Position numbers and translations under genes: made by a program
Shown: positions 203-36,348 of the stretch, one piece after another
Position numbering within the stretch: position 1 is the stretch's first letter
How the letters are laid out: the number at the start of each line of letters is the position of its first letter
Notes under the pieces: generated by a model
The model's input: only the letters and a program-made list of their open reading frames with translations
The model's database searches: none
What the model was told of the DNA's origin: nothing
IMG/VR virus record: IMGVR_UViG_3300020050_017826
Coordinates: 1-36,348 of that record
Length of the DNA stretch: 36,348 nt
Source of the DNA: a virus
Reading direction: 5' to 3' (one strand)

Positions 203-439
203 ATGGAAGATTTTCGAGATTACAAGCTTCTCATATTGAAAGAGCTGGAGAACATAAACAACAGTATGCATGAGATTAAGGTTCTCCTGAGTCGCCACGA
301 CAAGCGCCATGAGGAAACAGATGTGCGCATCACGAAGATTGAGCATGACTTTAAGTGGACCACAAAGCTCGTGGGGTTCGTATACACTCTTCTTGCGGGT
401 GTGACGGCGTTTTTTGCCTCGAAGCTTCTCAAGGGGTGA
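203..439 (+). CDS. Small tail-anchored membrane protein, first gene of the lysis block (holin/antiholin candidate)
   Basis: 78 aa with ATG preceded by GAGGGA. Charged helical N-terminal two thirds and a single C-terminal TM helix (LVGFVYTLLAGVTAFFASKLL). Lies two genes upstream of the endolysin. Confidence 0.45.
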   Translation: MEDFRDYKLLILKELENINNSMHEIKVLLSRHDKRHEETDVRITKIEHDFKWTTKLVGFVYTLLAGVTAFFASKLLKG

Positions 440-447
440 TCATAAGT

Positions 448-882
448 ATGATCAAACAACATTACAAAAAAGTGCTTTTAGTCCTGGTGCTGTGTGCTGC
501 TAGCTTTAGCGCGGGAAAGTTCTTTTCACACCCTTCTAGCGTAAAGGAGCAAAGTAAGGTTGATGCGAAGAAGGAAGAAAAAAAGAACATCGCGAGAGTT
601 GTGGTGAGAGAGAAAGTTACTCTTCCATCAGGTGAGGTAAGGGAAAAAGTGGTGGAAACACTAGATGTGAAGAGTGAAGCCAAGAGTGAAGTGAAGGAAG
701 AAAAACTCAAGGTGGTGAAGTATGACGCTCCTCGGAATTTCATCTTTGGTGGAGTGAGTCAAAGAGGATCTTATGGGGTGGGATACTCACGCAGAGTGTT
801 AGGTCCATTAGATTTAGGTGTTTTTATATCACACTCCCCGCGAGAGAATCTTGCGGTGGGCTTCGTGGGGTTGCGGTTCTAA
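448..882 (+). CDS. Envelope protein with N-terminal signal/anchor, Lys/Glu-rich linker and C-terminal beta-rich region ending in Phe (spanin-like candidate)
   Basis: Internal ATG at 448 of ORF 355..882 gives MIKQHYKKVLLVLVLCAASFSAGKFF (signal or TM). The middle is KEEKK/EVKEEK-rich. The C-terminus ...ENLAVGFVGLRF shows the alternating hydrophobic pattern with terminal Phe typical of OM beta-barrel beta-signals. Confidence 0.45.
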   Translation: MIKQHYKKVLLVLVLCAASFSAGKFFSHPSSVKEQSKVDAKKEEKKNIARVVVREKVTLPSGEVREKVVETLDVKSEAKSEVKEEKLKVVKYDAPRNFIFGGVSQRGSYGVGYSRRVLGPLDLGVFISHSPRENLAVGFVGLRF

Positions 883-906: not shown

Positions 907-1323
907 ATGAAGAAAATTTTCACCCCCGAGAGCTTTTTGAAGGGTATTGCGCTAAACCGCCTTCCCGCAGCGACTCAAGAAAACCTCCTTTACCTTGCTA
1001 GCAAGTGCAATCTCCTGGAAATCGCCTTCGAGCATGACCTCACCATTACGAGTGGGTATCGCTCTCCAGAGGACCAATACCGCATATATCGCGAGAAAGG
1101 TGTGACGGATACAAGCAAAGTGCCGATGGGCTCATCTCATCTTAAAGGCCTGGCGTGTGATTTTGCAGACACGCATGGTTTGCTTGATCTCTTCCTTTCT
1201 CGAAACAACGGGGAGATGCTGGTGAAGTTAGGACTATACCTCGAACACCCAGATAGCACCCCAGGGTGGACTCACATCCAGCTCAACGCACCCAAGAGTG
1301 GTAAGAGGATATTCTATCCGTAG
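907..1323 (+). CDS. Endolysin, peptidase M15 family (zinc D-Ala-D-Ala carboxypeptidase-like / L-Ala-D-Glu peptidase fold)
   Basis: 138 aa. Motifs SGYRSPEDQ, SSHLKGLACDF (SxHxxGxAxD) and C-terminal GWTHIQL match the M15 (Peptidase_M15_3-type) zinc-binding H/D/H pattern. Confidence 0.8.
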   Translation: MKKIFTPESFLKGIALNRLPAATQENLLYLASKCNLLEIAFEHDLTITSGYRSPEDQYRIYREKGVTDTSKVPMGSSHLKGLACDFADTHGLLDLFLSRNNGEMLVKLGLYLEHPDSTPGWTHIQLNAPKSGKRIFYP

Positions 1324-11588: not shown

Positions 11589-12365
11589 CTAGAATTTCTC
11601 TGTTTTGAAAACCGGCGGCACTTTCACCTCTGGGTCCTTCTTGGCTATAGCGTCAAACGCGTTCCAGTACTTTGATGCAGCTATGACTCCAGCGTTGTCG
11701 GCGAGGTCAATGCGGGAAGACTTTAACCCATCTTCATTGCAAACTTTGATCTTAAGGGAATCACTCTGAGCGAAGGATAATCTTACTTTCTCCGCAAACA
11801 CAGTAGTCCAAAGGTCTGTAGCACTCCCCACTCCCACGATTTTGTATGATCCCTGTGCAAACTCCTCATGCACATTCACGATCACATTGAATGGAAGTTG
11901 TTTGAGTGCCATCATGATTGCGAGCAAAGTGTCGCGGATCCAACCAAACTTGGCCATCGTGTACTTTGGATCTTGATACTCTTTTTTCAAATCCGCAGTG
12001 TCGTTCACAAGTACAGTGAGACTCGAATACGTATCAAGCACCACCGTTTGAATTGGTAAATCCTTAGCACTCTTGAGCATCTCAATGGTTTTTAGAAACA
12101 CTTCAAGCCGCGCTCGACTTACTTCTTTGCCTTGCAAACCAATAAGGTCTGGTGGTGTGCAATCTTCCACAAGTACTTTCTCTTGAAACTCTGCTGGTAC
12201 CATAGCCAACAGTGAAGAGAAGTTTTGATCTAGGTCTAGTATAAGAACCCCACCCCAACGTAACGCTAGTCGCAACGACGCTCTACTTTTGTATGACCCG
12301 CTTGCTCCTCTTTGTAAAAGAGCCAACTTAGATGATGCTGCTACGAAATCCTTGGCATTTTTCAT
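11589..12365 (-). CDS. RecA-like ATPase (AAA_24 / Sak4-like) with degenerate Walker A
   Basis: 258 aa. Walker A-like RGASGSYKS, Walker B-like TVVLDTYSSL and a later NVIVNVHEE. Its ATG overlaps the upstream stop (ATGA). Confidence 0.5.
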   Translation of the reverse strand: MKNAKDFVAASSKLALLQRGASGSYKSRASLRLALRWGGVLILDLDQNFSSLLAMVPAEFQEKVLVEDCTPPDLIGLQGKEVSRARLEVFLKTIEMLKSAKDLPIQTVVLDTYSSLTVLVNDTADLKKEYQDPKYTMAKFGWIRDTLLAIMMALKQLPFNVIVNVHEEFAQGSYKIVGVGSATDLWTTVFAEKVRLSFAQSDSLKIKVCNEDGLKSSRIDLADNAGVIAASKYWNAFDAIAKKDPEVKVPPVFKTEKF

Positions 12366-13042
12366 TCAATCTCCTTTAATCTCAAGTTGTCGAATTTTAC
12401 ATTTTGAAGTTCAAAGCCCATGAGTGAGTTCCATTCTAGCATTCTGTATACCTCTAGTGCTGCTACGAAGGAATTCCACACCCCCGTAATGCGCTTTACG
12501 TCATAAAGTTTTGGCTCCTTGCCGGGAGGTGCCCAAATGTGAACTACCTCGAAGTCACCGGAAATTTTGCCCATTCGCTCAAGTGCCTTACCATACGCCA
12601 CTGCTTGCAACATCGCAGTAGAGCTATAATTTCGGCCAGTCTTGAGTTCCCCTACCACATCCTTACCGTTACGTTTGCCAATGATGTCACACGTTCCAGC
12701 ATACCCAGCAACATCATGATGTACTGGAACTTCTACTTCACTCACCACGATGTTGTTTGCAGCAAGCAAGTTCAACACTGCCACACCATGTTCGCTAGGA
12801 TTATCACTAAAGAGTTGCTCATGAAGTGCGCTTCCTAGGGTTGCTCGTGAGGAAGAGCGTAGTTCAATTTCCTCTGGCGGTGTGCGCTTGAACCATTCCA
12901 TGAGTTGCTTAGGCACAAAGCAACCTAGTACTTCGGTTACGCTCACTAGCTTCATCTCCCCTAGCGTATAGTGTCGTCCTTTTTTCTTATCATTAACTTG
13001 AACCAAAACTGCATCGCTACTTTTAATCATAATATCGTCCAT
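12362..13042 (-). CDS. PD-(D/E)XK nuclease (RecB/Cas4-like exonuclease)
   Basis: 226 aa. Motifs D (TCDIIG), ExK (VGELKTG) and QxxxY (LQAVAYGKAL). Confidence 0.65.
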   Translation of the reverse strand: MDDIMIKSSDAVLVQVNDKKKGRHYTLGEMKLVSVTEVLGCFVPKQLMEWFKRTPPEEIELRSSSRATLGSALHEQLFSDNPSEHGVAVLNLLAANNIVVSEVEVPVHHDVAGYAGTCDIIGKRNGKDVVGELKTGRNYSSTAMLQAVAYGKALERMGKISGDFEVVHIWAPPGKEPKLYDVKRITGVWNSFVAALEVYRMLEWNSLMGFELQNVKFDNLRLKEIE

Positions 13043-18622: not shown

Positions 18623-18934
18623 CTATCCCCGTGATTGAAGTACGTTTCGGAGCTTAAGTGACTCCACCTCGGCTTGAAGTTGCTCTAGAGCTTGAGCTGG
18701 AGTCTTCTCCTTGAACGCCTTTCGCTGTTGCTGGCGCTTAAAGCCATACAGACTTAGGACCAAAAACGTATTCGCAATATCCAGGATACCGGTACTAGGT
18801 GCCAAAGCCATCTTCACAATCACCACCCACGCAGCTACGTTTGTAGCGCTGAGTGCGTTGTCTCGATTTAAAAGTGAGAGGAATATGAAAACCTTGAAAA
18901 ATCCTTCTTTGATCTTAAGTGCGAATGCGTCCAT
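18623..18934 (-). CDS. Holin-like membrane protein (three hydrophobic segments plus charged tail)
   Basis: 103 aa. Hydrophobic stretches FFKVFIFLSLL, VAAWVVIVKMALA and ILDIANTFLVLSLYGF, followed by a basic coiled tail. The order holin-like, small terminase, terL resembles T7. Confidence 0.4.
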   Translation of the reverse strand: MDAFALKIKEGFFKVFIFLSLLNRDNALSATNVAAWVVIVKMALAPSTGILDIANTFLVLSLYGFKRQQQRKAFKEKTPAQALEQLQAEVESLKLRNVLQSRG

Positions 18935-19448
18935 TTTTTTGCTCCTGTTTCGTCATTATAGCTTGTTTTCTAAATATGTCCAACGCGGTATACCAGGACG
19001 GCACACTGTACTTCCCAGCGCGCTCTAGCTCGTACGCTTTTGTATCATACTCCTTGAGTGATGTGGAGTATTGTCGCAGTTCCCTGGCATTCAACCTCAG
19101 CGGGGTGTACTTTAAAAGAAGCGCACATAGGAGTTCATACTCCAAAGCTTTGAAATCTTGCAAGCTTTTCTTGAGGGGTGAAGGCAAGTCCCCTAAAAAG
19201 ACCTCAGCCATATCATGCCACAGCGCGAAGAGTCTGAAGCGCTCAAAAACCCCAGCGGGCATCAAGTTCCACACCATCAAAGAGTGGTCTAAGATACTAA
19301 TGCTAGATGTTCCACAATTCCTGTACACCCCATCGGCTAAGCGTAGGAATGATTCTAAGCTTAGGGATGGGTTGAAAGGATCTAGTGTGCGTAACTTTCC
19401 ATCCACAAAGATCTCTATACTAACACTTTTCTTCATAGTACACCCCAT
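18915..19448 (-). CDS. HD-domain phosphohydrolase (YfbR-like 5'-deoxynucleotidase type)
   Basis: 177 aa. HSLMV ... FALWHDMAEVFLGDLPSPLKK (H..HD..D pattern). Confidence 0.7.
   Translation of the reverse strand: MGCTMKKSVSIEIFVDGKLRTLDPFNPSLSLESFLRLADGVYRNCGTSSISILDHSLMVWNLMPAGVFERFRLFALWHDMAEVFLGDLPSPLKKSLQDFKALEYELLCALLLKYTPLRLNARELRQYSTSLKEYDTKAYELERAGKYSVPSWYTALDIFRKQAIMTKQEQKNGRIRT
18955..18983 (-). promoter_or_regulatory. sigma70-like promoter TTGGAC-N17-TATAAT for the holin-like/terminase/portal genes
   Basis: On the minus strand: TTGGAC (18983..18978), a 17-nt spacer and TATAAT (18960..18955). GGAG and ATG 18934 follow. It lies inside the 3' end of the HD gene. Confidence 0.45.
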
Positions 19449-20232
19449 TCACAAAGGTACTGACTTTGCCATCGCTTTCGATAATAGGAACGGCTTGAAG
19501 GAAGCAAAACCCATCAGCCATAAACCCAACACAAAACCCAAGTTGCCACTGAGTCGTTTTAATCGCTGGAAGGTATTTCACGTACTGCACATCCACAAGG
19601 TGACCAGCATTCGCCGTGAACCGCGTGCCATGCTCCACATCCCCATCATACGCAACACCAAGGCGATGAGTGTGGCCAAAGATCAAATTTGATCCGAACA
19701 CCTTGCCACCTTGAAGAAGTGCCCCGGCTCCAGCCGAACCAAAATCATGCGTCACATACACACGGTCGAAAAGCTTGATGTGACTTCTGTATGGCACAAA
19801 ATCCCACTTCTTCCCTAGCTCTAGGATGTGCCGGATGGAAAAGTTATCCGCTCTTGAGCGCATCTGAGGGTGGTTTTGTCGAATCAACCTAGGTAATCTT
19901 TCCTCGTGGTTTCCCTCGAGGTATATCATCTTCTTTGCCCCCACACTCTCTAGCTCATCAATCCCAAGCCGTGCTGCTGCAATCTCCTCTTCTAGTGATG
20001 CAAAGTTTGATTCGTGCACAGCATGTGTGCTTGCAAACGCACAGTCCACAAAATCCCCCAGCACCACGATCATGGTCACCTTGAGTGCGCGAGCCACTTT
20101 GATCATGAGCCTGAACGCTCCATCGTGGTGGTATGGAAAGTGTGCGTCCGGCACATAAAGCACCACTTCACTTCCACTCACCCTTGGCGCTACTCTTACT
20201 TTCTTTTGAATTTTCTTTTTCATTTTACTCAT
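19420..20232 (-). CDS. Calcineurin-like metallophosphoesterase
   Basis: 270 aa. Motifs PDAHFP (DxH), LGDFVD (GD), EGNHEE (GNHE) and FGHTH (GH). Confidence 0.8.
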   Translation of the reverse strand: MSKMKKKIQKKVRVAPRVSGSEVVLYVPDAHFPYHHDGAFRLMIKVARALKVTMIVVLGDFVDCAFASTHAVHESNFASLEEEIAAARLGIDELESVGAKKMIYLEGNHEERLPRLIRQNHPQMRSRADNFSIRHILELGKKWDFVPYRSHIKLFDRVYVTHDFGSAGAGALLQGGKVFGSNLIFGHTHRLGVAYDGDVEHGTRFTANAGHLVDVQYVKYLPAIKTTQWQLGFCVGFMADGFCFLQAVPIIESDGKVSTFVNGVYYEEKC

Positions 20233-21938: not shown

Positions 21939-22123
21939 ACGCTCAAGTACCCTAGGGTGAGTACACCCAAACCCATCATTATAACCCCAACGCGAGCAAA
22001 GTAGCCTAGCGTAAAGTACCATCGCGCAAAGCTCCCCGCCGTGGTGATTATGCCACCCAGGACGTAGAGTGCCGCTATTATTCCTACCCAAAGAACTGCT
22101 AAGTACGCTGCGAATGTGATCAT
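21935..22123 (-). CDS. Small two-TM membrane protein (holin/pinholin-like)
   Basis: 62 aa, almost entirely hydrophobic (two TM helices). ATGA-coupled to both neighbouring genes. Confidence 0.5.
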   Translation of the reverse strand: MITFAAYLAVLWVGIIAALYVLGGIITTAGSFARWYFTLGYFARVGVIMMGLGVLTLGYLSV

Positions 22124-22554
22124 TTTTTTCTCTCCTTTGATGGCAACTCTAGGGTGGACCTGTCATCAAACTTTCCACCATCGTACCCTAAGATGTTGTA
22201 TGTAATTGCAAAGAGAATGTTGCAAGCCGCATGCCAAGAATGCGGCAACCCACTTTCACGGTCTAAGTTTTCTTCATCCACCATGTGACGAAACCAGCTG
22301 TTGAAAACTCTGCTATAGCTCATCCCCTTAGCATAGTTCAAAGACGCATACTTTCGCGCTCCAAAGTCCAACACCTTGAACATACCTTCGTTTGCGATCA
22401 AGGTCTTGAGCGTACTTTGCGGGATGTCTTTGCGATAAAAGTACCACTGCACCATTTCCTCACAAAGTACCCATGAGCCAAAGCATGATCTAAGCACGCT
22501 TGGGTGGATGTGGTGAAAAGTGTGTTTTCCAGCATCATCCCTCTTGGCACTCAC
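22120..22554 (-). CDS. dATP/dGTP diphosphohydrolase N-terminal-domain-like protein (DUF5664-type)
   Basis: 144 aa with a GTG start. KRDDAGK ... DFGARKYASLNYAKG ... FRHM ... LDRESGLPHSWHAACNILF matches my recollection of that phage family. Confidence 0.55.
   Translation of the reverse strand: MSAKRDDAGKHTFHHIHPSVLRSCFGSWVLCEEMVQWYFYRKDIPQSTLKTLIANEGMFKVLDFGARKYASLNYAKGMSYSRVFNSWFRHMVDEENLDRESGLPHSWHAACNILFAITYNILGYDGGKFDDRSTLELPSKERKK
22221..22236 (-). promoter_or_regulatory. sigma54-type match TGGCAT-GCGGC-TTGCA, internal to the upstream gene and about 100 nt before the membrane-protein gene
   Basis: The reverse complement reads TTGGCATGCGGCTTGCA, with correct GG-N10-GC spacing and a perfect -12 box. 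Confidence 0.35.
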
Positions 22555-22876: not shown

Positions 22877-23191
22877 CTAACGATCATCACCCTTCCCCTT
22901 GATCATGCCTCTCGCTCTTCTGTCACTAAGCTTGTCCAAGTTCATCAGTGCAATCTCTTCAAGATCCGTGCCAAGCTGCACACTAAGGTCACTCACAAAC
23001 CAAATTATATCGCCCAACTCTTTTTTCAAACCTTCCATGTCTAACTCACCATCACCTCTCAACGCACGCTTATACTTTCCCATGAGCTCTCCCACTTCTT
23101 CTACCAACCCACAAAGCGCATGACTCTCCCTGCGCTCCTCGTCCACCACATTAAACTCCCGTGCTAGCTTTGAGTATTCCTTAAGCGTCAT
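22877..23191 (-). CDS. mazG: MazG-like nucleotide pyrophosphohydrolase
   Basis: 104 aa. LVEEVGELMGKY, ELGDIIWFVSDL and NLDKLSDRRARG form the classic MazG EExxE / ExxD pattern. Confidence 0.8.
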   Translation of the reverse strand: MTLKEYSKLAREFNVVDEERRESHALCGLVEEVGELMGKYKRALRGDGELDMEGLKKELGDIIWFVSDLSVQLGTDLEEIALMNLDKLSDRRARGMIKGKGDDR

Positions 23192-26452: not shown

Positions 26453-27106
26453 TTACCTCAAGCTAAGCTCTATGCCAAGGAAGTCCGCGCCTAAGTTCTC
26501 ACTCGACCCACTTCCATTGCTAAAGTGTGCACCAAATATGCCAAGTTTTGCGCCCAAGCCCTTGCTCACCACTCCAAAAGCCACTCGATTCTCAACCTGA
26601 AGGTGAGTCGCAATTCCAGTGGTGCGTTTGTCAAAAACCGCAACTCCTACGGATGCACTAGCATAGAGGATATCGTTTTCCGCCAAAGCCTCCGTACCCA
26701 CACTCACAAAAGTGTTCCAGTTTTGCGTGAGAAAGTTCACATGATTTATACCACCCACACTCCCATACAGATGAAACACACTCACAACCCTTTCACGTGC
26801 CGTGATGCTGAGGTACTTTTGGTTTTGAACGTACTTTTGACCTAGCCCGGTTCTTAGCGTAAGTTCAGTTGCACTCACATTCAGTGTCAAACCCACGATG
26901 AAAGTTACGAGTATGGCTTTGAGATGTTTTAAGGTCACTTTTAATTGAAACACGCTAGGAGTAGTGTAGGATGACATGTATTTTTTATGAAACTTGATGT
27001 ACGCGAATGCTTTCTTTTTGTTTGTGTACCTCGCACCATCCAAGAGAAGGTCCGTCAACTTGTCATCATACTTTCCGATAATGTATATGTTTTGCTTACG
27101 TTTCAT
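26453..27106 (-). CDS. PagL-like outer-membrane beta-barrel (lipid A 3-O-deacylase / acyloxyacyl hydrolase family candidate)
   Basis: 217 aa. Internal signal-like LKHLKAILVTFIVGLTLNVSA (alternative start ATG 26977), then amphipathic beta strands. The C-terminal ...LGIFGAHFSNGSGSSENLGADFLGIELSL resembles the HxSN catalytic region of PagL (IHYSNAG...NDGIES in P. aeruginosa, from memory). Confidence 0.55.
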   Translation of the reverse strand: MKRKQNIYIIGKYDDKLTDLLLDGARYTNKKKAFAYIKFHKKYMSSYTTPSVFQLKVTLKHLKAILVTFIVGLTLNVSATELTLRTGLGQKYVQNQKYLSITARERVVSVFHLYGSVGGINHVNFLTQNWNTFVSVGTEALAENDILYASASVGVAVFDKRTTGIATHLQVENRVAFGVVSKGLGAKLGIFGAHFSNGSGSSENLGADFLGIELSLR

Positions 27107-27141: not shown

Positions 27142-27513
27142 TTACTTTGCGAATGGATGCAGATTCTTCCCACATACTTTACATATCACCCATCCGTCAA
27201 GTGGATATGACCCTGGAGTGCAGGTGTGTTCATCTCTAGTGCTAGCTCGCTTTGGATCTTGAAAGAACAAACCACGTTGTATTTCTTCCTCTTGGGTAAG
27301 TCCATTTGGTGTAGCCGTCGGATGACACGATACACAATTTGGATCTAAGCAAGACCCCACACTTCTTTGGTCCATTATGGTTTTAGCTCCATAAGCTTTT
27401 GTACACACCCAACACACATTACTTCTGCAAGTGTCCACTCCATAGGTAAAACCCAAACTCACACAACATATTCCACACTTACACGCCAAACTACCATCAC
27501 AACCTTTAGTCAT
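27142..27513 (-). CDS. Cysteine-rich hypothetical protein (14 Cys, several CxxC)
   Basis: 123 aa with CKCGICC, CWVC, CVSC and CKVC. Confidence 0.5.
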   Translation of the reverse strand: MTKGCDGSLACKCGICCVSLGFTYGVDTCRSNVCWVCTKAYGAKTIMDQRSVGSCLDPNCVSCHPTATPNGLTQEEEIQRGLFFQDPKRASTRDEHTCTPGSYPLDGWVICKVCGKNLHPFAK

Positions 27514-27833: not shown

Positions 27834-27863
27834 ATTATAGCGGTGGTGCAATCTGTGTGCCAA
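27834..27863 (-). promoter_or_regulatory. Promoter readable two ways: sigma70 TTGGCA-N18-TATAAT, and an exact sigma54 TGGCAC-ACAGA-TTGCA (27847..27862)
   Basis: Both readings come directly from the minus strand. The element is 15/17 identical to the promoter at 28308..28324, which has TTGAA instead of TTGCA. Confidence 0.5.
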
Positions 27864-28262: not shown

Positions 28263-28301
28263 ATGGTCATGCTCATGGTCATACCCATGCGTATGATCAT
28301 A
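28263..28301. repeat. Three copies of the ATGGTCAT / TATGATCATA motif overlapping the -10 box and early transcribed region of the leftward early promoter
   Basis: ATGGTCAT at 28263..28270, ATGGTCATA at 28275..28283, TATGATCATA at 28292..28301. Confidence 0.8.
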
Positions 28302-28324
28302 CTGTGATTCAAGCTGTGTGCCAA
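28296..28324 (-). promoter_or_regulatory. sigma70-like early promoter TTGGCA-N17-TATGAT
   Basis: On the minus strand: -35 box at 28324..28319 and -10 box at 28301..28296, about 50 nt upstream of ATG 28242. Confidence 0.55.
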
Positions 28325-28981: not shown

Positions 28982-29242
28982 ATGAGCATGAAAGAATATC
29001 TCAAAACTGCAAAGTTACTTTCCCGGCTTGGGGAAGCTGACATAGATTTCCTAAAACTTGTACCTAGGACTTTGGACCAAGTGATGAGGGAGTACGCTAG
29101 AAGCTACCTCATCATGAAGGCCGGGTCGTATGAAGTCGCGGCCAAAGAGCTAGGAGTGTCGGAAGCCACTCTTTACCGCTTGGTTCCTTCAAAAACCATA
29201 AAAAGAAGCGCGAAGAGGGTGAAGCATGTTCCGGAGGACTGA
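28982..29242 (+). CDS. Stand-alone Fis/NtrC-type helix-turn-helix (HTH_8-like) DNA-binding protein
   Basis: 86 aa. MREYARSYLIMKAGSYEVAAKELGVSEATLYRLV resembles the C-terminal DNA-binding domain of Fis and NtrC-family activators. An excisionase-type HTH_17 fold cannot be excluded. Confidence 0.6.
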   Translation: MSMKEYLKTAKLLSRLGEADIDFLKLVPRTLDQVMREYARSYLIMKAGSYEVAAKELGVSEATLYRLVPSKTIKRSAKRVKHVPED

Positions 29243-34997: not shown

Positions 34998-36348
34998 TGG
35001 CTCTTACACGAGAAGAAGAAGAAGAACTCGCAGCACTAGAGGCTGAGCTTGGGTCATCTCAGGAGCAAAGCCCAGATCGCAGCATGATGAAATACAGTGC
35101 GGACAACGTTGGGAAAGTTGAGGGGTTTGCACGGGGGTTCGAGAGTGCCACCGGAGTTGGAGATGAAAGTGCCGGCTTAGGAGCTGGGTTGTACGAAGTT
35201 CTGAACCGTGAACCAGATGACACGCGAAGTGTTGGGGAGAGATTTAAGGCCGGTTTTAGCGGTGGACGCCAAGATGAAGTGAAACAGATGGATCATGCGT
35301 ATGATGTCCAGCCTGATGCGTATGCGCTGGGAAAAGGTGCGGGGATTGTAAGCCAAGCCGTGATCACCCCCGCGAGCGTAGGTGCTCAAAGCGCACTGGG
35401 AGCTGCTCAAGGGTTTGCATCTGGGGAGAGTTTACCGGGACGACTTGGCGCGGCGGTGGTTGGCGCTTTGGTGCCGGTGGGGTTGCGTGGTTTGGGTAAA
35501 AGTGCTGGAGAAGCATCGGATGAGCTGAGCCAGCGTGTGGTGCAAAGTACTCTGAACATCCCAAAAGGTGAGCGGGATGCTATTATTCGTGATTATGGTC
35601 CGGAAGGTTTAATCGCTGTGGGCGAGGAGTTACGTAAAAGAGGGATTGGAAACGAGGCTGGGCAGAGTGCACCTGAGATTTTGAGTATGCTCAAAAGTAA
35701 CCTTACGAAAGAGGGCCAAGCCATAGAGAGTGGCGTAGCTAAGATTGCAACTCCTATTGAAACTCCAATCACCCCTGTGGCTGGTGGGTTGGAAGAGCAA
35801 CTTTTTGCGAAAGGCACGAATGAAATTGTGCGTAATGACGCAGCTATTCCGATGTCTCAGGTGAGAGCGGAGTTTCTTGATCCAATCTTGAAGAGTGGTA
35901 AGGATCCTGCTTTTGTGGGTAAAGCAGCTAGGGACGTGGAGAACATCTTAAAGCAATATGGAGATGAAATGTCCTTCCCTCAGCTTCAAGAGTTTCAGCA
36001 AACTTTGGCTGAGAGAGCAAACGCATACGCCAACTCCCCTCTCAAGGGAACTGCAAAGTACCTTAGTGATATTGCGAGTAGTGTGAGATCGACTCTTGGG
36101 GAACTTAGCCCGGAAGTAGCTAGCGCTCAACGTAACTACGCTGTGATGAAGAGTGGTGTGCAAGGAGCACTGAACCCGGTGAGTGATGAGTTTGCACGCA
36201 TGTCACCTGTTTCAAGTATAGCCAGTGCATACAGGAAGACTGTGGGTGGCCCGGAAGTACAAAGCTCCATCAACAGCTTGCTGGAAAAAGCAACATCCTT
36301 CCAAGGTGGGAAGTACGCAGCTCTTTTGGATGCTGCTACGAAGAGTGG
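34997..36348 (+). CDS. Internal virion / ejection protein, 5' part of the junction-spanning gene (476 aa when joined to 122..200)
   Basis: ATG 34997 overlaps the upstream TAA (TAATG). I translated the frame by eye and found no stop before the window end. Contains Gly/Ala-rich hydrophobic segments (GAGIVSQAVITPASVG, LGAAVVGALVPVGL). Confidence 0.6.
   Translation, partial: MALTREEEEELAALEAELGSSQEQSPDRSMMKYSADNVGKVEGFARGFESATGVGDESAGLGAGLYEVLNREPDDTRSVGERFKAGFSGGRQDEVKQMDHAYDVQPDAYALGKGAGIVSQAVITPASVGAQSALGAAQGFASGESLPGRLGAAVVGALVPVGLRGLGKSAGEASDELSQRVVQSTLNIPKGERDAIIRDYGPEGLIAVGEELRKRGIGNEAGQSAPEILSMLKSNLTKEGQAIESGVAKIATPIETPITPVAGGLEEQLFAKGTNEIVRNDAAIPMSQVRAEFLDPILKSGKDPAFVGKAARDVENILKQYGDEMSFPQLQEFQQTLAERANAYANSPLKGTAKYLSDIASSVRSTLGELSPEVASAQRNYAVMKSGVQGALNPVSDEFARMSPVSSIASAYRKTVGGPEVQSSINSLLEKATSFQGGKYAALLDAATKS
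36228..36348. repeat. Terminal direct overlap, right copy (identical to 1..121)
   Basis: See the left copy. Confidence 0.95.

Follow-up and report, generated by a model that had tools for sequence, protein, structure and literature searches.

What does a phage gain from a gene for a small outer-membrane protein that resembles a bacterial lipid A deacylase? The question is raised by a gene at positions 26453 to 27106, on the minus strand, of the IMG/VR virus record IMGVR_UViG_3300020050_017826; the whole stretch analyzed here, positions 1 to 36,348 of that record (36,348 nucleotides), is referred to as the window. A preliminary description, made from the sequence alone, had proposed that the gene encodes an outer-membrane lipid A deacylase of the PagL type. 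In bacteria, PagL enzymes remove a single fatty acid from lipopolysaccharide. We find that the product very probably belongs to the PagL-family esterases and keeps its active site intact. It represents a diverged PagL lineage in phage-like DNA, and not a new kind of protein. For the locus as a whole, we favor, with moderate confidence, a phage-borne PagL-family outer-membrane serine esterase that acts on lipid A.

The open reading frame (ORF) is present on the minus strand and ends in ...RVAFGVVSKGLGAKLGIFGAHFSNGSGSSENLGADFLGIELSLR, exactly as first described. A second, independently assembled Joint Genome Institute (JGI) contig carries the identical protein. The parts of the gene are listed below, where 2ERV is the structure of Pseudomonas aeruginosa PagL, L001 and L002 are two contigs syntenic with the window, GC is guanine-plus-cytosine content, and pLDDT is the predicted local distance difference test.

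26453-27106, minus strand: PagL-like precursor ORF, from ATG 27106 to the stop codon at 26453-26455; 217 residues plus stop (ORF list and sequence)
26939-27106, minus strand: N-terminal extension, residues 1-56, basic and of low GC (comparison with L001 and L002; codon usage)
26870-26938, minus strand: Sec-type signal peptide, residues 57-79 (V/M-TLKHLKAILVTFIVGLTLNVSA); a helix in both models, aligned with the N-termini of relatives
26456-26869, minus strand: mature eight-stranded outer-membrane beta-barrel of 138 residues (residues 80-217); AlphaFold, with pLDDT mostly >90, and Foldseek
26483-26527, minus strand: active-site segment with His194, Ser196, Asn204, Gly206, and Asp208 (hmmsearch and hhalign to 2ERV)
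26525-26527, 26519-26521, 26495-26497, and 26483-26485, minus strand: codons of His194, Ser196, Asn204, and Asp208, respectively
26456-26476, minus strand: C-terminal strand G211-I-E-L-S-L-R217 (G-x-x-hydrophobic-x-hydrophobic, here G-x-x-L-x-L), the last strand in the model, which holds the tripeptide GIE

Membership of the PagL family is indicated first by sequence profiles. A search of Pfam-A with hmmscan matched the 217-residue protein to PF09411 (PagL), the family named in the preliminary description, at 37.4 bits against a curated gathering cutoff of 23 (E 3.2e-9). This match is far beyond chance, and PF09411 is the sole Pfam family returned, even at E up to 10. All 16 of the aligned relatives also match PF09411. 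NCBIfam, PHROGs, and PADLOC returned no match to the protein. A single-sequence search of PDB sequences returned nothing relevant and missed 2ERV. A profile built from 16 relatives, searched against the same sequences with hmmsearch, matched one entry, 2ERV (E 5e-5). Furthermore, hhalign gave a 90% probability for the alignment with the mature P. aeruginosa PagL sequence.

The predicted fold points to the same family. An AlphaFold2 model built on the 16-relative alignment has a mean pLDDT of 89.7 and a predicted template modeling score (pTM) of 0.78. It consists of an N-terminal helix (residues 59-78) followed by eight strands, with pLDDT >90 in the barrel, which bears out the earlier observation of a signal-like segment followed by strands of alternating polarity. 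When this model was compared with the PDB using Foldseek, chains B and A of 2ERV ranked first (E 2.7e-5 and 5.2e-5; template modeling score (TM) 0.56-0.65), so that the suggested comparison with PagL structures placed PagL itself on top. The 2ERV chains are also the sole PDB matches at E<=1e-3. The weaker matches, at E 7e-3 or worse, are the N-domain of OprF, NspA, and OmpA (7e-3 to 6e-2) and PagP (1THQ; 0.042).

The active site is where the resemblance to PagL is most specific. By both hmmsearch and hhalign, His194, Ser196, Asn204, Gly206, and Asp208 align with His126, Ser128, Asn136, Gly138, and Glu140 of P. aeruginosa PagL. We take the oxyanion Asn of that enzyme to be residue 136. P. aeruginosa PagL forms a barrel of eight strands that has a Ser-His-Glu triad, and its oxyanion hole includes a conserved Asn (review PMC4402001); its active-site numbering as used here follows the 2ERV alignment and that review. 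In Salmonella enterica serovar Typhimurium PagL, a member of the same family, His163 and Ser165 are essential (PMC4958258); through the family alignment, these residues correspond to H194 and S196. When all the relatives that we found are aligned (19 sequences, some of them only 20-30% identical overall), five columns show no variation: Q170, H194, S196, N204, and G206.

The motif reasoning of the preliminary description held for two of the three catalytic residues. The HxSN motif is present as HFSN (H194, S196, and N197), and its His and Ser are the counterparts of PagL His126 and Ser128. The acidic residue, however, had been assigned to the Glu of GIE (Glu213), whereas gapless alignment, hmmsearch, and hhalign all pair Asp208 with Glu140. 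Asp208 lies 12 residues past Ser196 and 14 past His194. Glu213, in turn, lies 17 residues past Ser196, within the last strand, and is variable among relatives; it is rejected as the triad acid. The likeness of GIE to the DGIES of P. aeruginosa PagL is a coincidence. In that last strand G211 is nearly invariant, and the G-x-x-L-x-L pattern resembles, by analogy, the beta-signal recognized by the beta-barrel assembly machinery (BAM).

Might the protein instead be a barrel that acts simply by being present, perhaps hiding or occupying a receptor, as is thought for Lom/Ail-type proteins and some other phage barrels, with the PagL-like residues as relics? Small barrels resembling outer-membrane proteins are common in phages. 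BFVD holds many of similar fold (TM 0.5-0.66), from cultured as well as uncultured phages, named as generic outer-membrane proteins, and one distant member of the clade weakly matches the cyanophage family PF24653 (Phage_OMP; E 9e-4). Like the window protein, the phage barrels (lambda Lom of the Ail/Lom family, PF24653, and the BFVD entries) have about 150-190 residues and about eight strands and belong to the host outer membrane. We know of no lom/Ail or PF24653-type phage barrel that is an enzyme or that has the His-x-Ser...Asn signature. The window protein, in contrast, matches PagL in Pfam, and up to E 10 it has no Pfam match to the Ail/Lom, OmpA-like, opacity, or PF24653 families. Its best structure and profile matches are likewise to PagL and not to OmpA, Ail, or opacity families. 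Moreover, the invariance of H194, S196, and N204 across relatives that are 20-30% identical is hard to explain without catalysis. A non-enzymatic role is thus highly improbable.

Two other families of outer-membrane barrels act on acyl chains of lipid A from outer-leaflet active sites: PagP, a palmitoyltransferase (1THQ), and LpxR, a 3'-O-deacylase. Both differ from PagL in family and in catalytic residues, and the window protein has no Pfam match to either.

Comparison with P. aeruginosa PagL (PA4661) shows both how much is shared and how far the phage protein has diverged. The two are alike in mature size (138 residues here versus 150) and are both eight-stranded outer-membrane barrels. Both have His-x-Ser-Asn at the end of strand 7, and in both the Asn, Gly, and acid follow the His at +10, +12, and +14, with the acid opening strand 8. 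The phage protein differs in its low structural identity, in an N-terminal half that Pfam does not recognize, in having Asp in place of Glu140, in being carried by a phage and not by a chromosome, and in the 56-residue basic extension ahead of its signal peptide.

Several of these differences weigh against a straightforward assignment to lipid A. The PF09411 match is limited to residues 135-217 (positions 49-136 of the 136 in the profile), and the structural comparison with 2ERV gives 17% identity; specificity could therefore differ. The acid is Asp instead of Glu, and column 208 is D, E, or N among relatives. It is Asn in 4 of 16, so the acid may be dispensable or the chemistry may differ in detail. 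In addition, the assignment presumes that the host's lipid A carries a 3-O-acyl chain.

These points leave room for a PagL-fold esterase with an intact active site but with another substrate, such as a different position on lipid A, an outer-leaflet phospholipid, the acyl chain of a lipoprotein, or a surface glycolipid. We regard this as unlikely, though worth serious consideration. The clade is very distant from the characterized PagLs, as the failure of the single-sequence PDB search to find 2ERV illustrates, and it has just 15 representatives in 1.84 billion proteins. On the other side, the His, the Ser, the oxyanion Asn, and the neighboring Gly stand at the same spacing as in PagL, and no family matches better. 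To our knowledge, every characterized PF09411 member is a lipid A 3-O-deacylase.

A separate question is whether the copy in the window can still be exported. If ATG 27106 is used, the signal peptide is preceded, as had been noticed, by a basic N-terminal extension (residues 1-56; net charge +9). Relatives start at MKKI..., right at the signal peptide, and the extension is missing in all of them, including L001 and L002; it is therefore not a feature of the family. In L001, the MKKI start lies 11 nucleotides past the stop codon of a conserved upstream gene, and the window has about 165 extra nucleotides there. As an observation on the genome, this 165-nucleotide low-GC insertion falls exactly at the junction between the upstream gene, which is Cys-rich, and the PagL-like gene. 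The extension has a GC content of 36%, versus 47% in the rest of the gene. No homolog of it was found in any fetched locus, no second copy occurs in the window, and it has no Pfam match. Its AlphaFold prediction consists of low-confidence helices (pLDDT 42-75). We also considered and rejected a separate gene: there is no stop codon between the extension and the rest of the frame, and the stretch has no homolog, no Pfam match, and no confident fold.

The window phage has no ATG at the start position of its relatives and has the 56-residue extension ahead of the signal peptide, which makes the export efficiency of this copy uncertain and is a further point against our preferred account. Taken further, the insertion may have crippled the gene by removing its start codon and adding 56 basic residues, leaving a protein that is poorly exported, or no protein at all, and a gene on its way to becoming a pseudogene. 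The low-GC nucleotides, the lost start, and the lack of a confident fold speak for this. So does the lack of any Shine-Dalgarno–like motif ahead of ATG 26977 or GTG 26938, the possible starts within the frame, though many of the phage genes have clear AGGAG-type sites.

Other evidence makes a crippled gene improbable. The frame is open over 217 codons, and the codon usage of the extension is of the coding type (0.298 in the ORF frame, compared with means of 0.268 for the genes and -0.56 off frame). A weak Shine-Dalgarno–like motif, AAGAG, lies ahead of ATG 27106. By tblastn, the mature barrel is 96% identical to that of L001, 85% to that of L002, and 49% to that of a third contig, L006, and the gene from 26453 to 26938 (minus strand) is 90% identical to its counterpart in L001. 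Against L002, the genes on either side are much less alike, at 40-46% identity. The ratio of nonsynonymous to synonymous substitution rates (dN/dS) is 0.06-0.20 across comparisons, at 0.195 against L001 and 0.07 against L002, and synonymous sites are near saturation against L002; on these grounds, the gene is under purifying selection. The same protein is also found on two independently assembled contigs. Finally, a basic cytoplasmic segment ahead of an internal hydrophobic signal does not necessarily keep that signal from entering the Sec pathway and undergoing cleavage.

Thus, the extension is a lineage-specific insertion, unique to the window phage, that is probably translated. The hydrophobic segment behind it aligns with the N-terminal signal peptides of relatives, MKKI...A(T/A/Q)E, and the -3/-1 rule predicts cleavage by signal peptidase I after VSA79 (VSA79/T80). 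The segment may therefore act as an internal signal, with the VSA79/T80 site still releasing a normal mature barrel.

Who else carries this gene? Exhaustive searching with phmmer through 1.84 billion representative proteins returned 15 relatives at E<=0.001. These have 138-185 residues, except for one 93-residue sequence and one spurious 2074-residue repeat protein. Word-indexed searches added four further relatives. In the 2074-residue protein (P0013), 11 separate stretches match residues 117-147 of the query; it probably reflects a repetitive beta-hairpin–like composition and not a relationship to PagL, and it was excluded from all alignments. All seven relatives on contigs long enough to judge sit in phage-like contigs. 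The contexts are as follows:

L001 and L002: syntenic with the window
L006: contig of 25 kb that shares the nucleotide-metabolism genes of the window
L007: an M15 endolysin together with small ORFs
L008: contig of 41 kb that encodes a P22-type portal and a beta-helix tailspike
L009: PagL-like gene flanked by PolA on one side and HNH/DnaB genes on the other
L016: array of small ORFs, 1.4 kb past an M15 endolysin

The relatives' contigs have G+C contents between 34% and 46%, a spread that probably reflects several hosts. Among 50,697 GenBank phage records, tblastn with three members of the clade found no credible PagL-like relative. Pattern scans of IMG/VR and JGI metagenome records, whose sensitivity is limited, added no further relatives. 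Nor did a profile scan of bacterial and archaeal genomes, one per species for 185,579 species, find a member of the clade. The PagL-like gene therefore belongs to a rare clade, so far seen only in phage-like contigs.

The DNA that carries the gene is itself of phage origin, as had been proposed. A perfect 121-nucleotide direct repeat at 1-121 and 36228-36348 indicates that the window holds an entire phage genome of about 36,227 bp, either assembled as a circle or terminally redundant. Recognizable phage genes encode a family A DNA polymerase (PolA), a DUF3987 primase, TerL, a portal, and a metallophosphoesterase. A Sak4-like protein and an M15/VanY-type endolysin are also encoded, as are MazG and a dATP/dGTP diphosphohydrolase domain; matches to a major head protein and a tail fiber are weak. 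At the nucleotide level, nothing in the GenBank phages matches the window. TerL shares only about 27% identity with those of HTVC010P-type pelagiphages and of a Silvanigrella phage, and PolA only about 23% with those of assorted phages. No integrase was found among the window proteins scanned. With respect to host assignment, the window contains no tRNA genes, and scans of bacterial and archaeal genomes with the PagL and lipoprotein alignments came back empty.

How such an enzyme might work during infection can be outlined from its predicted features. The gene would be transcribed with an early-looking leftward block, possibly from sigma-70–like promoters by the host RNA polymerase. The precursor would reach the Sec translocon through the hydrophobic segment at residues 59-78, behind its basic cytoplasmic extension of 56 residues; that segment may serve as an internal signal or as an anchor. 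Signal peptidase I would then cut after VSA79, and BAM would insert the 138-residue mature protein into the host outer membrane as an eight-stranded barrel. There, the active site, located where strands 7 and 8 end at the outer leaflet, would hydrolyze the ester bond of a primary lipid A acyl chain. If PagL is a guide, the target would be the 3-O-linked 3-hydroxyacyl chain, and acylation of lipopolysaccharide (LPS) would be lowered in the still-living infected cell.

The likeliest benefit to the phage would be altered LPS packing or receptor properties, together with greater shedding of vesicles. Fewer competing phages, or fewer of its own progeny, might then adsorb to infected cells and debris. 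Expression of Salmonella PagL alone raises vesicle production about 4-fold (PMC4958258), which makes vesiculation a plausible phenotype for the phage copy as well. The Salmonella enzyme differs in being the product of a host gene, controlled by PhoPQ and latent in the membrane, whereas the phage gene lies in an early-looking block, where nothing points to regulation of that kind. As a secondary possibility, the enzyme would weaken the outer membrane before lysis. A role in blocking adsorption is favored because of the early-looking position of the gene and the lipoprotein gene beside it.

Timing is suggested by gene order. The genes from about 28260 to about 5200 are all on the minus strand, and the PagL-like gene is fourth in this block, ahead of the genes for nucleotide metabolism, packaging, and replication. 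The following features lie at or near the head of the block:

27834-27863, minus strand: sigma-70–like promoter match, TTGGCA-18-TATAAT, 11/12 (consensus scan), at the head of the leftward block
28296-28324, minus strand: sigma-70–like promoter match, TTGGCA-17-TATGAT, 10/12 (consensus scan), beside the divergent regulatory region
28982-29242, opposite strand to the leftward block: divergent gene for a helix-turn-helix (HTH) protein

No convincing terminator was seen between the two promoter matches and the PagL-like gene. This arrangement suggests early expression of the PagL-like gene by the host RNA polymerase. A point against this is that promoter matches in the region are no more numerous than expected by chance, so that early timing is inferred from gene order only.

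The immediate neighbors of the PagL-like gene are as follows:

27142-27513, minus strand: Cys-rich gene of 123 residues directly upstream, a conserved neighbor; tblastn identity 100% with L001 (121 residues aligned) and 40% with L002
25885-26448, minus strand: lipoprotein gene directly downstream, with probable start ATG 26421 and lipobox VSAC; the lipobox Cys is conserved in 12 homologs

The Cys-rich gene has no Pfam or PADLOC match. The lipoprotein is 53% identical to its copy in L001 and 46% to that in L002 (tblastn). Homologs of the lipoprotein are P0022-P0033 and the genes at L001:7056-7511, L002:5524-5967, L012:6001-6558, and L014:6001-6603. The variable middle of this family consists of collagen-like G-X-Y repeats (PF01391) in some members and of a DUF7151-like insert in others, including that of the window. 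A side observation is that its C-terminal domain is conserved and contains Cys: ...DPCGD..HDEVL..LASFSNN.NGDYTRFS...TTDGSGCFFSVD...NEHY. Relative to L001, the region shows mosaicism at the scale of single genes, with 100% identity in the upstream Cys-rich gene over 121 aligned residues, 90% in the PagL-like gene, and 53% in the downstream lipoprotein.

The same lipoprotein follows PagL in L001 and L002, and L006 has a different lipoprotein at that place. The family also occurs in the phage contigs L012 and L014 with no PagL within the 12 kb read, which rules out an obligate PagL-lipoprotein module. Phage barrel genes often lie beside a lipoprotein gene, as do lom and bor in lambda.

Phages have other means of altering the cell surface. 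The Gtr O-antigen glucosyltransferases and the Oac acetyltransferase of temperate phages, and the Llp lipoprotein of T5, which blocks FhuA, are thought to block superinfection and to protect progeny. T5 Llp is an early-expressed lipoprotein, and a lipoprotein gene is likewise present here, directly after the PagL-like gene. The difference lies in the target: Gtr, Oac, and Llp act on the O-antigen or on a protein receptor, mostly in lysogens, whereas the PagL-like protein would act on the lipid A anchor.

Could the protein instead belong to the lysis machinery? The genes of the window that bear on this are as follows:

203-439, plus strand: gene for a 78-residue membrane protein
355-882, plus strand: gene for a second membrane protein, with probable start MIKQHYKK...
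907-1323, plus strand: M15/VanY-type endolysin gene

On the circular map, about 10 kb separate these lysis genes from the PagL-like gene. This distance rules out a component of the lysis cassette in the window phage, and a spanin is ruled out because the barrel does not have spanin architecture. Where the gene lies is mild evidence against a dedicated role in lysis for the window phage. In two distant relatives, however, an M15 endolysin gene lies 1-1.5 kb from the PagL-like homolog, with small membrane-protein genes nearby:

L016:116-586 and 2028-2558: PagL-like and M15 endolysin gene pair
L007:631-1122 and 2133-2732: PagL-like and M15 endolysin gene pair

This proximity, which is compatible with a lysis-related role, counts against our favored account of the gene. 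Comparison of about 10 kb in the window with 1-1.5 kb in L007 and L016 shows that position relative to the lysis genes is not conserved.

The clade as a whole can tentatively be given a broader reading. It may be a phage-only clade spread across unrelated lineages (relatives of the HTVC010P-like window phage, one phage whose portal is of the P22 type, and one that has PolA and DnaB genes). Lytic phages might deploy it early to deacylate the lipid A of their hosts. By acting on the LPS anchor, and through loss of the receptor or through decoy vesicles, the enzyme would then keep out superinfecting phages and protect progeny; in some phages, it might instead loosen the outer membrane before lysis. 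It could then represent the first class of viral enzymes that edit lipid A. We put this forward as a speculative possibility that we think doubtful in its full extent.

Phages are known to alter O-antigen and protein receptors. Since the closest relatives of the window protein also occur in phage-like DNA, some phages probably edit the host outer membrane during infection. No report of a phage-encoded PagL or lipid A deacylase was found in PHROGs, in the 50,697 GenBank phage records, or in the part of the literature that was searched; this absence is not proof of novelty. If the enzyme is active, lipid A acylation would join the host traits that viruses rewrite during infection, with consequences for outer-membrane permeability, vesicle production, competition between phages, and innate recognition of LPS in host-associated bacteria. 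Active members of the clade would also provide very small, divergent PagL variants (138 residues when mature), possibly useful for detoxified LPS or vesicle vaccines.

Three further features of the window phage were observed. The 355-882 protein begins with a segment that resembles a membrane anchor or a lipobox (LVLVLCAAS); a long linker rich in Lys and Glu follows, and the C-terminus, rich in Gly and aromatic residues, ends in ...VGFVGLRF. It has no credible match in Pfam, PHROG, or PADLOC. Its ...VGFVGLRF end looks like an outer-membrane beta-signal; a protein that couples an anchor in the inner membrane to a beta segment in the outer membrane would be an unusual spanin-like design.

The second feature is a nucleotide-pool cluster, a set of enzymes that is also present in the relatives L006 and L012. 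The four genes are, in order:

18915-19448, minus strand: HD/YfbR-like 5'-deoxynucleotidase (weak match)
19420-20232, minus strand: metallophosphoesterase
22120-22554, minus strand: dATP/dGTP diphosphohydrolase N-domain (PF18909)
22877-23191, minus strand: MazG

Combinations of nucleotide-pool enzymes of this kind accompany modified-base genomes in other phages.

The third is a pair of adjoining genes:

12362-13042, minus strand: weak match, below cutoff, to a Cas4/DUF83-type nuclease
11589-12365, minus strand: Sak4-like single-strand annealing protein

This pair is probably a recombination module.

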